Program-made: the position numbers and the translations under genes
The notes under the pieces: generated by a model
The model's input: only the letters and a program-made list of their open reading frames with translations
The model's database searches: none
Told to the model about the DNA's origin: nothing
Shown here: piece after piece, positions 22,415 through 39,110 of the stretch
How the letters are laid out: each line of letters opens with the position of its first letter
Position numbering within the stretch: position 1 is the stretch's first letter
NCBI GenBank assembly: GCA_013387205.1
Contig: WARV01000010.1
Coordinates: forward strand, 765-64,764
Direction: 5' to 3'
DNA: 64,000 nucleotides
Source of the DNA: Patescibacteria group bacterium
GTDB taxonomy: Bacteria > Patescibacteriota > Doudnabacteria > UBA920

Positions 22415-23404
22415 CTACTTTTGGCATTTCGGGCAAAACGAACCGGTGCGTCCGCCAATCTTCATCGACTGGATTACTGTGCCGCAAACTTTACATTTCT
22501 CCCCTGCCCGGCCGTAAACGAAATGAAATTTTCCCATTTGCCCCCAAGAGCCATCTGTCCTTATAAAATCCCCAACCGACGAGCCCTTAGCTTTAATCGC
22601 CTGCTTTAAAACTTTTTGAATGTTTTGATAAATACCCCTTAATTCTTGATTCTTAATACTTGATACTTTCCTGTCCGGCCTGACTTTGGCATGAAATAAA
22701 ATCTCATCGCTATAAATATTGCCAATCCCCGCCACTACTTTTGGATCCATCAAAACCTGTTTGATTTTCCCCTTCGGACGTTTTTTCACGGCCGTGAAAA
22801 AACGTCCCCATATGAATTCTTTGTTTAACGGCTCGGGGCCGTATTCCGAAAGTTCTCTAACTTGATCAATCTCATTATCGCGCACCAATTTTAAATACCC
22901 AAACTTACGTACGTCGTTAAAATACAAAGTTGATCCATCTGTAAATTTAAATATCACGTGCGTGTGCTTGCTTGGCAACTGGACCAATGGAGCATTAGAT
23001 GAATTAATCAGGCGATATTTTCCACCAGTTTTTTGCCGCAGTTTTTTATCCTCAAAAATAAACTGCCCGGTCATTTTTAAATGTGCCAAAATAGAAAGCG
23101 ATCCGCTTGTCCGACGTAGCCTTGCATTGCCCGCCGAAGCTTTATGCGAAGGCTGGGGCGAAGTTGGAGATAAATCAAAAATCAAAAGTTTGGCCCTGCG
23201 CTTAACCGACAAAATCTTTTTTCCAATCAGCAAATCAGAAAATTTTTTTACCTGGCCATTTTTGACTTTCCTGACATTACTAACGACATCCGGTCCAATT
23301 TGCACCATCTTTGGCGCATTAACAAAAACCGACTTAATAGCCTTGTTTTTTAGCTTTTTATTTAGTTCATTTACAATGGTTTGGACTTCTGGGAGTTCAG
23401 GCAT
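22415..23404 (-). CDS. mutM: Formamidopyrimidine-DNA glycosylase
   Basis: MPELPEV, HLKMTGQ, GIGNIYSDE, C-terminal zinc finger. Confidence 0.97.
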   Translation of the reverse strand: MPELPEVQTIVNELNKKLKNKAIKSVFVNAPKMVQIGPDVVSNVRKVKNGQVKKFSDLLIGKKILSVKRRAKLLIFDLSPTSPQPSHKASAGNARLRRTSGSLSILAHLKMTGQFIFEDKKLRQKTGGKYRLINSSNAPLVQLPSKHTHVIFKFTDGSTLYFNDVRKFGYLKLVRDNEIDQVRELSEYGPEPLNKEFIWGRFFTAVKKRPKGKIKQVLMDPKVVAGIGNIYSDEILFHAKVRPDRKVSSIKNQELRGIYQNIQKVLKQAIKAKGSSVGDFIRTDGSWGQMGKFHFVYGRAGEKCKVCGTVIQSMKIGGRTGSFCPKCQK

Positions 23405-23482
23405 CAATTTAGATATTAGATAACTTAATTATACCAATCGCCGCACAATTGACAAAATAACCTATAAATGAGAAAATGGTTA

Positions 23483-23911
23483 GTCGCTGATGTTTGCATG
23501 CCTTAAATGATATCCCGAAAGGATGAATAGTTTTTTGTTCTAAGTTTAAGGCGGTTTGATGTTACGACGGCGACAAAAGACCTGAATAAGGCTTGGCGAG
23601 AAAAAGTCAAAAGAGGAAAGCAATTCTCCAAGTTTTGGCGTGTGAGGTTATGTATTTGAGGCAGGCGGCACTGCCGGAAAATGAGACCAAAACCACTATC
23701 TTCCTCTACGCGAGGATAAAAAGCACGACATGGGAACCGCAAGAACCATGTAGCCGCAATAGTTTTTATTGCGGGTGCTGCCAAAACCAACCTGAAGATC
23801 GCGTTTAAAAATTCTTTAAATTAAAAAATTTTTGAAATACCCAGCGGCACATCTTCAGGACAACGAGAACCTAATCCCGCTCGCCACCACCCTTTAAGGT
23901 GGTGGCTTTTT
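23483..23911 (+). ncRNA. Candidate ~430-nt multi-domain structured RNA of unknown family
   Basis: TTGACA(23449)-17-GAAAAT with extended TG; nested stems and multi-way junctions; terminator 23883-23911. Confidence 0.65.
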
Positions 23912-24062
23912 CATTTTATTGACAATATCATGTTATTGATATATATTAATCTATCAATTGCGGTTTGCGGAGTAAGCGTTTCTAGTGCTTATTCCGCTGC
24001 CCGCAAGAGCAGCCTGCCTTTGGCAGACTTCGTCTACCTAGACGTTAAACGAGGTGGAAAAG

Positions 24063-24440
24063 ATGAGTGAGGTCGAGAATCCTCTCACCAAATTACATCA
24101 GTTAACCCGCACAACCGAGCAGCAACTTTGCCAAAATGCGGGAATGATTGCTAAAGCATTAGCAGCTTTAGGGCCCTGCAATCTACCTATGGACTACCAA
24201 GTCCGGAAGGTTGCTGGCAAACCCCGACTCCAACGACGGAATAAGAGATGTCACGAAGGAGTCCCTTACAAACACGCTTTTACGGTATATCCGGAAATCC
24301 GGGTGCCAATCTACGACGCTCTCTGCATAGCTGAAGATGTAGAGGCTGGTTTGATTGACCAAGTTGTCGTCGAACTACAGACAATGCAGAAAGCTGAAAC
24401 CGTGCTCGCAAAAGCAGTGGCTAGACTGAAGTTGATGTAG
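24063..24440 (+). CDS. Hypothetical protein with structured leader
   Basis: TTGACA(23919)-17-TATATT, SD GAGGTG, ATG 24063. Confidence 0.6.
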   Translation: MSEVENPLTKLHQLTRTTEQQLCQNAGMIAKALAALGPCNLPMDYQVRKVAGKPRLQRRNKRCHEGVPYKHAFTVYPEIRVPIYDALCIAEDVEAGLIDQVVVELQTMQKAETVLAKAVARLKLM

Positions 24441-24927
24441 GATTTTTCAGACTTGAAAGTTCAGTTTTTCAGTATTCCATCTTCCGTATTCCGTTTTCCG
24501 TCATGCAATAATGATTGCGTTCTTGGGTAGACGCAAGCAGGAGGAGGAATATACCCAATTATTATGCAAAAAATAGAACATCGTTCTATGGATAATGCAA
24601 AAAGATCATGAAAGCCCGCTAGAGGAACCAGATGTGTTTCTCGCGGGCTTTTCATATTGAAAATATTCCCATTCTCCGTCATAATAAGTATAATGGTTTT
24701 TGGTTAAATTACAGGGTGTTATCCAAACGGCTAAATCGATTATTTACTGCGTTTTAGCCGTTCTCCTTCCCTGTAAAGGGAAGGTGGCTTGCGAAAACAA
24801 GCCGGAAGGGTATGACAATAATTTGATACCACCTCCCTCCACTTTTACGTGGAGTACTCCTCCTTAGAAAGGAGGAGAGAAGGTTACACCAGCACCCAGT
24901 TCGCAATAACGATAACGTTAAAATGAT

Positions 24928-26433
24928 ATGCAGAATTTTTTAAAGTCCATACCCCATAAATTCACGGCCAAGGAAGAGCAGATTTTGCAAAAGGCTTTTG
25001 AATTTGGCAATAATGCCCACAAAGGCCAAAAGCGCAAAAACGGCGACGACTATTTCACGCATCCGGTCGGCGCTTCAATTATTTTAGGGCAAATTTTCCC
25101 GGATACCCCAACCTTAGCCGCCACCCTCCTTCACGACGTACCAGAAGACACGGGCATGTCTTTGGAAACAATCGAGAAAGAGTTCGGCAAGGAAGTCGCC
25201 AGGCTGATTGACGGCGTCACTCAGCTCGGCCACGTCAGGTTCAAAAGCAGCAAGGACAAATACTACGTGGAAAATTTGCGTAAACTGTTCATTGCCACCA
25301 GCCAGGACATCCGGGTTATTTTAATCAAGCTTGCCGACCGCTTGCACAATATGCGGACCATAGAATTCATCCCTCCGGAAAAACAGAAAAAAGTGGCCAT
25401 GGAAACTTTGGAGATGTATTCCCCTATTGCCGGCAGGCTTGGCATAGGAGCCTGGAAAGACGAGCTGGAAGATTTGTCTTTTAAAATTGTCTTTCCCAAG
25501 GAATTCGAGGAAACAAAAAAACTTCTGGAAGACGAGCTAAAAAAACGAAATGAAAATTTAAAAGACATGCAAAAGCGCCTGGGCCACACTTTGCGTACCG
25601 AAGGGATCAAATATTTGGAAATTACCGGCCGCGTCAAACGCCTTTATTCTTTATATAATAAACTCAAGCGCTACAAAGGCGACATAAGCAAGATTTACGA
25701 TATCATGGCCTTAAGGATCATTACCAAATCCACCGCAGATTGCTATGCTGTCTTAGGCGCCATTCACAAACACTTCCAGCCCGTACCGAACAGAATTAAA
25801 GATTTTATCGCCACGCCAAAACCCAATGGCTACCAGAGCATACATACTACAGTTTTCGACAAGAACGGCAGCATTATGGAAATCCAAATCCGCACGGATT
25901 TGATGCACGAAGAGGCCGAGCGCGGAATTGCCGCCCACTGGTTTTATTCGGAAGAAGGCAAGCCGGAAAACAGCGGCCCAATGAAGCCTTCCTGGATTGC
26001 CGAGCTTCAGGCCTGGCACGAAGAAGACACTAACCCGGACGAATATTTGGAAAGGTTGAAAATAGATTTTTTCCGCGACCGCATTTTCGTGTTCACGCCC
26101 AAAGGCGACATTAAAGATTTGCCGCACGGCGCCACGGTTATAGATTTTGCCTTTGCCGTGCATAGCGATTTAGGCTACCACATGATGGGCGCCAAGATAA
26201 ACGGAAAGATGGCCAGCATCTACGACGAGCTTTCCCAGGAAGACGTGGTAGAAATTATAAAGAGCAAAAAGCCGGCAACTATTTCCCGCGACTGGCTGGA
26301 CGCGGCCAAAACCAGTGGCGCGCGCAACAAAATCCGCCACTACCTGAACGAGCATGATAAAGGGATAATCCAAAGGGTAAAAGAACTCAAGCTACAGGAT
26401 TTCAAAATTGCGAGGTTTTTCAGAAAGAAATAG
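24928..26433 (+). CDS. RelA/SpoT homologue (HD, synthetase, TGS; no ACT/RRM)
   Basis: LLHDVPED, KLADRLHNMRT, PKPNGYQSIHT, EIQIRT, FVFTPKG, DFAFAVHS. Confidence 0.93.
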   Translation: MQNFLKSIPHKFTAKEEQILQKAFEFGNNAHKGQKRKNGDDYFTHPVGASIILGQIFPDTPTLAATLLHDVPEDTGMSLETIEKEFGKEVARLIDGVTQLGHVRFKSSKDKYYVENLRKLFIATSQDIRVILIKLADRLHNMRTIEFIPPEKQKKVAMETLEMYSPIAGRLGIGAWKDELEDLSFKIVFPKEFEETKKLLEDELKKRNENLKDMQKRLGHTLRTEGIKYLEITGRVKRLYSLYNKLKRYKGDISKIYDIMALRIITKSTADCYAVLGAIHKHFQPVPNRIKDFIATPKPNGYQSIHTTVFDKNGSIMEIQIRTDLMHEEAERGIAAHWFYSEEGKPENSGPMKPSWIAELQAWHEEDTNPDEYLERLKIDFFRDRIFVFTPKGDIKDLPHGATVIDFAFAVHSDLGYHMMGAKINGKMASIYDELSQEDVVEIIKSKKPATISRDWLDAAKTSGARNKIRHYLNEHDKGIIQRVKELKLQDFKIARFFRKK

Positions 26434-37943: not shown

Positions 37944-37984
37944 AAAAAGCCGCCGCGTTCCCCTCCTAAGAAACGCGGGCGGCT
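37944..37984 (-). terminator. Intrinsic terminator at the RT stop
   Basis: GC-rich stem 37949-59/37972-83 followed by TTTTT on the minus strand. Confidence 0.75.
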
Positions 37985-38969
37985 ACCATCCCCAATTAAG
38001 TTGATGGACTCTTTGCCCTAAGGCATCAAACTTTTCCAGCAGTGCATAAGGCAGGGTTTCTTTTATGGCAAAACCCATATAACCTTTTGCCGCCTGCCAA
38101 GCATGGTCATGTTCCAGCCCGTGGTCCAACATGTACTCTAAATGATGCAAAGACTTTCTTAGCGTACGCTTGAACCGTTTGGTATTTGAGATGCTATCCG
38201 AAACGATGTTTAATCCTAACATGCGGCACATGCCGCCATGGCTTATTTGCCGAATCTTATGGACATCAAACATCTTTTTTACTTCTGACAGGATTCCGGC
38301 TCTGGCAAATTTCGGAAATTCCGGTTCCTGGCTACTGAAAAACAAATTATCAGCGTATCGGTTATAGACCAAACAATGCCTGTCCGCCCAGGTTTGCAGT
38401 TTATCATCAAGCGGAGAAAAGCAAAGCTCAAACAAACGAGGACTGGTACAGGCTCCCTGCGGCAATTTGCCACCGCAAGAAAACCATTCCATCCCGGAGG
38501 CATAGGCGCGGGATATGTCACCGACGGTACAAAGATCGGCAATCATCCAAGAACAATAAAACGAAAGCTTGGGCGCGCCGAGCCCATAAACAGCTTTAAA
38601 AACTTGGTTATGGCTGATGGATGAAAAAGCATGCCTTAAATCGAAGCACAGCATCGATTTAAATCCCTTATGGCTTGCCACGGCCTGCCTGCAACTCCCA
38701 CCCATAAACCCAAAACTTTGTATGCTGCTGCAAAACTTTGACAAAATGCTCTTGTTCACCGTATCTTGCACAGCCTTCAGTTCCTTGTTAGGAACAAATA
38801 TTGGCCTTGTGGTTCCATCCTTGTTTGTCTTTTCCCACTTCTTGTAATACAAATGGTGTTTGTTCTGTCTAAGGTTGCCGATAAGGTAATAGAGATTAAA
38901 CTCTTCACTCAGTTTCAGCTTGCCATGTAGCCATGGCAAAGTAAAAACCACTTCACGCTGCTCAAACAT
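37983..38969 (-). CDS. Retron-like reverse transcriptase (328 aa) with YADN motif
   Basis: KDGTTRPIFVP..LKAVQ, SFGF, AVASH (region X-like), FDLRHAFSSI, LPQGACTSP, YNRYADNLFFS, MLG (region Y position); SD AAGGAGG places the start at 38969. Confidence 0.88.
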   Translation of the reverse strand: MFEQREVVFTLPWLHGKLKLSEEFNLYYLIGNLRQNKHHLYYKKWEKTNKDGTTRPIFVPNKELKAVQDTVNKSILSKFCSSIQSFGFMGGSCRQAVASHKGFKSMLCFDLRHAFSSISHNQVFKAVYGLGAPKLSFYCSWMIADLCTVGDISRAYASGMEWFSCGGKLPQGACTSPRLFELCFSPLDDKLQTWADRHCLVYNRYADNLFFSSQEPEFPKFARAGILSEVKKMFDVHKIRQISHGGMCRMLGLNIVSDSISNTKRFKRTLRKSLHHLEYMLDHGLEHDHAWQAAKGYMGFAIKETLPYALLEKFDALGQRVHQLNWGW

Positions 38970-38990
38970 GGAAAGCCTCCTTAAAATTTT

Positions 38991-39110
38991 TTCTGCCGCC
39001 AATCATGCGTTAGAAGAAAAGTAATCGCATACAACTGACGACTGCCAGAGTTCTGACAGCCGGTCCGGACCAACCTAGCGTATGGCTGGACATGTTGACT
39101 GGCGGCAGAA
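38991..39110 (-). ncRNA. Putative retron-type msr/msd RNA (~120 nt)
   Basis: 15-bp terminal stem TTCTGCCGCCAGTCA/TGATTGGCGGCAGAA (one G-U) enclosing three hairpins; begins at the predicted TSS. Confidence 0.75.

Follow-up and report, generated by a model that had tools for sequence, protein, structure and literature searches.

The window, by which we mean the whole 64,000-nt stretch of DNA analysed here, belongs to a patescibacterial genome of 1.3 Mb (G000) and includes fpg (22415–23407, minus strand; Pfam Fapy_DNA_glyco) and relA/spoT (24928–26433; HD_4, RelA_SpoT, and TGS). Flanked by the divergent fpg, and with relA/spoT ~1 kb beyond it, a gene-free stretch (23449–23911) most likely encodes, as judged from its sequence, a real, folded non-coding RNA of ~430 bases, with an estimated transcript length of ~428 nt (Table 1). 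DNA contigs from four runs in two studies cover the stretch and list no base difference within the RNA; the best of these contigs possibly represents the source sample. Among the sequencing runs listed as containing the sequence, none was an RNA run, which counts neither for nor against transcription. The preliminary description of this DNA had placed a promoter upstream of a start at ~23483 and a U-tailed terminator behind the last domain. Scanning finds both, yet single matches of either kind occur at chance level (promoters, 5 versus 3.6; terminators, 2 versus 2.2).

The next unit (23919–24652, plus strand) consists of a strong promoter, a hairpin-rich leader (z −4.0), an SD-led 125-aa ORF, and a terminator-like hairpin. 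Its promoter (TTGACA-17-TATATT at 23919–47) agrees with the earlier statement that the next gene has a promoter of its own. No homologue of the 125-aa ORF was found, with atlas matches below 0.9; the ORF region also folds well (z −3.6), and both a protein gene and a second RNA are possible. Words in the ORF region recall the P and R elements of group I introns, with no support from Rfam.

Folding of the window RNA

The plus strand folds at −133.5 kcal/mol (z −4.58), and none of 100 shuffles is equally low. With the terminator removed, the window RNA has a z of −4.2 in the sense orientation versus −1.6 in the antisense orientation. The seven members of its family, described below, have z values of −2.4 to −4.2 without the terminator; the sense value lies below the antisense value in all seven, with a margin under 0.7 in five.

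The helices named in the preliminary description are all present. In particular, the 5′ domain contains the closing stem GTCGCTG (23483–89)/CGGCGAC (23568–74) and the nested stem GCCTTAAAT (23500)/GTTTAAGGC (23544), while the large domain contains the closing helix GTTTTGGCG (23632–40)/TGCCAAAAC (23779–87), the helices GGCAG (23660)/CTGCC (23671) and TCCTC (23702)/GAGGA (23712), the pairing GCAC (23723)/GTGC (23775), which carries ACATGG (23728)/CCATGT (23746), and the hairpin CCGCAATA (23754)/TATTGCGG (23767). The helix CCTGAAGAT (23791–99)/ATCTTCAGG (23851–59) of the variable hairpin domain is present as well. The earlier structure is nevertheless incomplete, in that its "three short hairpins" omit the best-supported helix, the long-range P1. 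Moreover, several of its helices sit in variable domains, where the pairing is present in the sequence but the seven-sequence alignment cannot confirm it.

Table 1. Positions of the predicted features of the RNA in the window.
Feature	Position	Strand	Evidence
σ70-type promoter: TTGACA, 17 nt, TG-extended GAAAAT	23449–23477	+	Promoter scan; TTGACA-17-(T/G)AnnnT in 7/7 members
5′ domain: closing stem, GCATG motif (23496–500), nested stem, three-way junction	23483–23574	+	Folding, z −3.7
P0 hairpin immediately 5′ of P1, CCT/AGG in the window	23581–23591	+	Comparison of members
P1 5′ strand, YGGYGAG	23594–23600	+	49/49 cells paired, 2 compensatory pairs
A-rich loop, first five A invariant (7/7 members)	23601–23612	+	Alignment
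GAGGAAAG...TTCTC: local hairpin, or putative inner-rod 5′ strand pairing with 23865–78	23613–23628	+	Local form, folding; long-range register, drawn by hand
Large multi-branch domain	23632–23787	+	Folding, z −3.7; conserved words
Variable hairpin domain, missing from G111 and G054	23791–23859	+	Folding, z −3.8
Inner-rod 3′ strand and invariant unpaired G ahead of P1	23865–23879	+	Alignment
P1 3′ strand, CTCRCCR; final 4 nt double as terminator base	23880–23886	+	Comparison of members
Intrinsic terminator, 9 bp and U-tract (hairpin 23883–906), excludes 4/7 P1 pairs	23883–23911	+	Terminator scan

Homologues and shared anatomy

We found six homologues of the window RNA: four in genomes of the same class (G103, G111, G115, and G054) and two on metagenome contigs of unknown lineage (L262 and L286, which are similar to each other and have flanks covered to 300 nt). 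Searching 146 genomes gave a weak 24-nt match that pointed to a complete homologue within the fpg–relA gap of G103; reading 30 fpg loci yielded G115; G115 as query yielded G054, which belongs to another family and has another genomic setting; and a covariance model of the 5′ core (R1) yielded G111, located in the fpg–relA gap. The class-wide search with R1 gave matches in 46 of the 146 genomes at E ≤ 0.05 (56 matches, 30 with loci: 4 known and 26 inspected, of which 1 was new). L262 and L286 came from a metagenome pattern scan, as the 2 real members among the matches listed (at least 120), and further members probably exist.

Other searches returned no additional member. A plain DNA search with the window RNA in 61 genomes gave six weak matches beyond the RNA itself (three inspected, none real); phage records gave one weak match, and a plasmid search did not find the RNA. 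Four pattern scans of viral contigs contained no real member among 34, 4, 52, and at least 120 matches. A pattern scan of species genomes, with a pattern unable to match the L262/L286 or G111 types, gave 65 matches, of which the 3 real ones were all previously known members. Outside the class, a DNA search of 401 genomes gave one weak match that was not real; a second model (R2) gave matches at E ≤ 0.01 in 32 of 150 genomes, with no new member among 30 inspected loci; and a P1–gap–P1 pattern gave 13 matches in 12 of 401 genomes, versus 13 control matches, and nothing new.

The RNA is thus carried, G000 included, by 5 of the 146 genomes of the class, in a single copy per genome. The members occupy three unrelated settings: the fpg–relA gap (G000, G103, G111, and G115), a site with a divergent gene on one side and a convergent gene on the other (G054), and a site behind a tRNA gene (L262). 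A second set of 40 fpg-upstream regions contained no RNA. Of all 72 such sites seen, four hold the RNA (G103 and G111 having been chosen by their matches), and the remaining 68 are empty or hold other inserts, often promoter–ORF–terminator cassettes. On a quick tree of RelA (64 rows; 8 loci with too little relA omitted), the carriers fall within one 28-genome clade with non-carriers interspersed, and the RNA is missing from the close kin of G103 (G101 and G114). This interleaving indicates that the predicted RNA gene is often lost or moved.

The fpg–relA gap in relatives is an insertion hotspot for mostly unrelated promoter–leader–ORF–terminator cassettes (L023, L027, L030, L033, L037, L045, L379, L383, L390, L393, and L399), and relA in these relatives retains an extended −10 promoter near its start codon.

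All seven members, with estimated lengths of 375–560 nt, share a promoter with a perfect −35 box (TTGACA), a 17-nt spacer, and a −10 box, followed by a small hairpin (P0), a 7-bp long-range helix (P1), and an invariant A-run. Promoter and terminator are retained at a column identity of ~50%. The inner and outer domains vary in length, and the seven-sequence alignment gave no consensus structure for them: the 5′ domain is strongly shrunken in L262 and L286 and bigger in G054, and the P1 region contains an extra hairpin in these three members. P0 takes the forms CCCGG/CCGGG, CCTGT/ACAGG, and CCTTCCC/GGGGAGG in other members, with registers off by one column in the automatic alignment. GCATG occurs 9–20 nt past the start in five of the seven members; conserved words of the large domain are GTGARR (23642; 5/7), GGYA(C)GG (23660; 4/7), and GYCAWAAC (23780; 6/7 by pattern). 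For four of the seven members a candidate pseudoknot can be drawn, in which GGYA(C)GG pairs with the CC(G/U)U that follows GYCAWAA; rival pairings exist. Within P1, the purine-rich strand with its YYCT end could fold into a local hairpin or, together with the strand that precedes the 3′ half of P1, into an irregular rod. The members share no ORF: ATG-led ORFs longer than 25 codons vary from member to member in strand, location, and sequence, and the 52/71-aa ORF of the window is therefore not a conserved gene.

P1 (TGGCGAG, 23594–600, and CTCGCCA, 23880–86, in the window) closes off the molecule's 3′ two-thirds, and across the members the CTCRCCR partner sits 220–310 nt 3′ of YGGYGAG. Two of its pairs show compensatory changes: the outer pair is U-A in the window and C-G in the other six members, and the fourth pair is U-A in G111 and C-G in the other six. 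The pairing together with these changes was matched by 6 of 500 shuffles, in a test of seven sequences with five of seven pairs invariant, for which the tool warns that related sequences may beat shuffles without structure; slid registers were 29–57% paired. RNAalifold recovers P1, P0, and the terminator unaided, and P1 is part of the lowest-energy fold of the isolated core in all six members tested. The comparative support for the predicted helix is good, short of formal proof because five pairs are invariant and the sample is small.

Overlap of P1 with the terminator

In all six members with a full 3′ end, a terminator hairpin of 8–12 bp with a U-tract starts at the R of CTCRCCR. Over this 4-nt overlap, four of the seven P1 pairs compete with the terminator base. 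The complete window transcript favours the terminator by 4.4 kcal/mol, with a P1 probability of 0; forcing P1 in the full transcript costs 4.4 kcal/mol in the window, and the other values are 6.4, 3.1, 0.3, 0.0, and 2.3 kcal/mol. As long as the terminator is incomplete, the P1 probability is ~0.9 or more in six of the seven members and 0.04 in G103. The last four bases of the terminator are a copy or near-copy of the P1 5′ strand, which suggests that exchange of the two by branch migration would be easy. The calculated stability of a duplex between A-run and U-tail is low (−0.1 to −3.3 kcal/mol), and such pairing would be expected of any A-run with any U-tail.

A helix whose 3′ strand holds the start of a terminator is the geometry of an ON switch, and in transcriptional ON riboswitches and T-box leaders the 3′ strand of the closing helix is common to the terminator base. 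The RNA could accordingly be an ON-type transcription attenuator or riboswitch, in which P1, stabilised by a ligand, tRNA, or protein, would keep the terminator from forming and permit read-through into the next gene, most commonly relA/spoT. The position of the terminator start within the P1 3′ strand, the mutual exclusion of the two structures, the 0–6.4 kcal/mol that separate their folds, and the outer U-A change of P1 in the window, which the terminator arm mirrors, are all consistent with this reading, as is the presence of relA directly downstream in G103, G111, and G115. In these three genomes, however, relA retains a TGnTATAAT promoter past the terminator; in the window, the RNA is separated from relA by an orphan cassette that has a separate promoter as well as a strong hairpin and U-run (24610–652); and in G054 the next gene is convergent. 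Among the five members with a downstream gene seen, there is thus no constant same-strand gene class dependent on read-through. The absence of the RNA from 68 of the 72 fpg-upstream sites and its big interchangeable domains with few invariant bases, unlike a compact aptamer, likewise argue against an attenuator. The RNA also differs from ON riboswitches and T-box leaders in having neither an Rfam match nor a T-box bulge. We consider an attenuator unlikely. The varied downstream genes (relA with its own promoter, an orphan cassette, and a convergent gene) fit better with a stand-alone accessory RNA than with a riboswitch.

Our preferred reading is that the locus is probably a stand-alone accessory ncRNA gene of 375–560 nt with its own promoter and terminator; its comparative part comprises the shared promoter, P0, P1, A-run, and terminator overlap and the lack of a shared ORF. 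For the working of such a gene, we propose that P1 would form as its 3′ strand is transcribed, and that the terminator would then swap strands with the outer four P1 pairs, releasing the transcript. After release, P1 would re-form; this would close the 3′ domain and set free the U-tail, which might be trimmed or docked on the invariant A-run. The conserved core would bear interchangeable outer domains, and the gene would come and go as other accessory cassettes do at this site.

The conserved overlap offers a sharp, cheap target for an in vitro test, and the seven natural variants, with their interchangeable domains, are ready constructs for probing and cryo-EM.

Relation to known RNAs and remaining alternatives

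At the gathering threshold of Rfam 15, the window contains two tRNAs only, with neither ROOL, GOLLD, OLE, raiA, nor any other family over the RNA; a scan of 23200–24200 at E ≤ 10 gave one chance miRNA match (19.7 of 92 bits), and the homologue loci had no match over the RNA. We found no literature description of such an RNA, although supplementary motif tables might list one. The RNA apparently represents a family of large structured RNAs, from a CPR lineage, that has not been described before. The preliminary reading of a large structured ncRNA, possibly of a new class, is thus supported by the lack of an Rfam match for the window and the homologue loci, by homologues in genomes of the same class and on metagenome contigs, by compensatory changes in P1, and by the 52/71-aa ORF, which is not conserved among the members.

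The available parts of two sources describe ROOL, GOLLD, and OLE as large, patchy, A-minor-rich RNAs of unknown function, with 10 invariant bases and an average of 581 nt for ROOL and 800+ nt for GOLLD (PMC5737381, PMC12286853). So far as these parts allow comparison, the window family resembles them in its several hundred nucleotides, large multi-junction fold, lack of a protein product or conserved ORF, patchy distribution, and few invariant bases, and one of its seven members (L262) lies behind a tRNA gene. It differs from ROOL and GOLLD in its smaller size of 375–560 nt and lack of a model match. ROOL and GOLLD occur in phages or prophages, often next to tRNA islands; no real member of the window family was present among the matches listed in the four viral-contig scans. 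In contrast to ROOL, GOLLD, and OLE, the closing helix here overlaps the terminator, and a 5′ domain lies outside the closing helix; the predicted P1/terminator overlap is a distinctive feature of the family. The DUF3800-I and drum motifs, together with FuFi-1 and skipping-rope, as covered in part of their source, likewise combine a complex structure with a following Rho-independent terminator and rarely lie within true 5′ UTRs (PMC5737381); the window RNA is larger than these motifs are there, has no Rfam match, and has no constant neighbouring protein gene.

By analogy, the likeliest role, which we propose tentatively, would be a structural or scaffold one like that of OLE, ROOL, and GOLLD, possibly with self-assembly. 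More doubtful, but possible, is a new large-RNA class in which closing helix and terminator form a conserved switch, acting either as a self-capping 3′ end, via strand exchange and capture of the U-tail on the A-run, or as a sensor coupling folding to read-through, which in several genomes would lead into relA, the gene for the (p)ppGpp enzyme. Large structured bacterial RNAs are described, in the available parts of the sources, as rare and frequently with catalytic, sensory, or self-assembling properties (PMC5737381, PMC12286853). Searches of the G000 genome found neither SRP RNA nor Ffh nor 6S RNA, and the retention of a 400-nt accessory RNA in a lineage of 1-Mb genomes in which these were not found suggests that it does real work.

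Several known RNAs were considered and rejected. For tmRNA, with its tRNA-like ends and tag ORF, ARAGORN found none in the window, and the tmRNA of the genome lies on contig C22. For SRP RNA, RF01854 had no match at E ≤ 1, and Ffh/SRP54 (PF02978) was not found in this 98%-complete genome. For 6S RNA, a ~190-nt rod with a central bubble, RF00013 (a model that detects only 5 of 14 controls) had no match in the genome at E ≤ 1, and the window RNA is twice as long and branched. A retron msr-msd would lie upstream of a reverse transcriptase (RT) and be closed by a1/a2; no RT adjoins the RNA, and the retron RT 14 kb away has an msr-msd of its own. For a DGR template, no adenine-specific copy was found in the genome.

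The RNA might alternatively be a selfish or neutral structured insert without a function in the cell, such as the remnant of an intron or a non-autonomous mobile element. Its patchy occurrence in 5 of 146 genomes, its absence from G101 and G114, and its location in an insertion hotspot fit such an element; its single copy per genome, the lack of any terminal repeats, adjacent transposase, or intron-model match found, and the retention of promoter and terminator at ~50% column identity make it very unlikely.

The window contains a stand-alone retron (37983–39105, minus strand) with an RT (best PADLOC models RT_II-A/III-A), its own msr-msd, which a 15-bp a1/a2 repeat closes, and then a terminator, and with no adjacent effector gene. 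Similar units occur in G103, G107, G111, G112, G053, and G142, with a weaker RT in G141, and a second RT is present in this genome (G000:C12:56880–57446, L414; RVT_1, open frame of 255 aa).

It is highly improbable that the RNA is a trans-acting partner of this retron, that is, a second substrate, decoy, or effector. Close RT orthologues are indeed present in 5 of 146 genomes, including three RNA carriers, and the 5′-domain word CATG(T)CC resembles the retron branch-G context. By hand arithmetic, the RT/RNA overlap has P ~0.01 in the 28-genome clade and ~0.08 in the inner clade plus G000; the RelA tree shows the genomes with both to be related, which accounts for part of the overlap. The longest exact matches between the RNA and the retron RNA of its own genome are 12 nt in G103 and 13 nt in G111 (background, 20 and 7 of 1500 random windows), but they vary in place and orientation and were sought post hoc, and the window's own match is an unremarkable 10-nt AT run (319/1500). 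Furthermore, the retron already has its own msr-msd, five of eight RT-positive genomes lack the RNA in the model search, the RT was not found in carriers G115 and G054 (90% and 80% complete), and RVT_1 generally occurs in three of five carriers and three of five non-carriers.

A degenerate RNase P RNA paralogue that has lost its catalytic pseudoknot is extremely improbable and already largely refuted: the RNA resembles type A RNase P RNA (RF00010) in size, in its long-range closing helix, and in two short words (GAGGAAAG, which follows the A-run, and (A)CAGGAAC..CTTATC, close to the 3′ end) that loosely recall the genome's strands GTAGGAAAGTCCG and ACAGAATTCGGCTTAT, but the genome has a canonical RNase P RNA on contig C23 (108 bits), none of four RF00010 matches at E ≤ 10 falls at the RNA locus, all seven members lack the TCCG/CGG core of P4, and no P4 pseudoknot with GAGGAAAGUCC and CGGCUUA strands was found.

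Three minor observations concern the surrounding DNA and the searches. A long, structured-looking leader 5′ of an rpsB-like gene (L098; G001:C2, near 92013) was a false match in the RNA search. Within fpg, 23110–23165 is a repeat-like in-frame insertion of ~20 codons that is common to other contigs and missing from many relatives (split matches 1–79 and 100–329). Ahead of relA, a palindromic element (24700–24900) folds strongly, with z down to −7.7, and part of it is repeated in other contigs of the sequencing runs.
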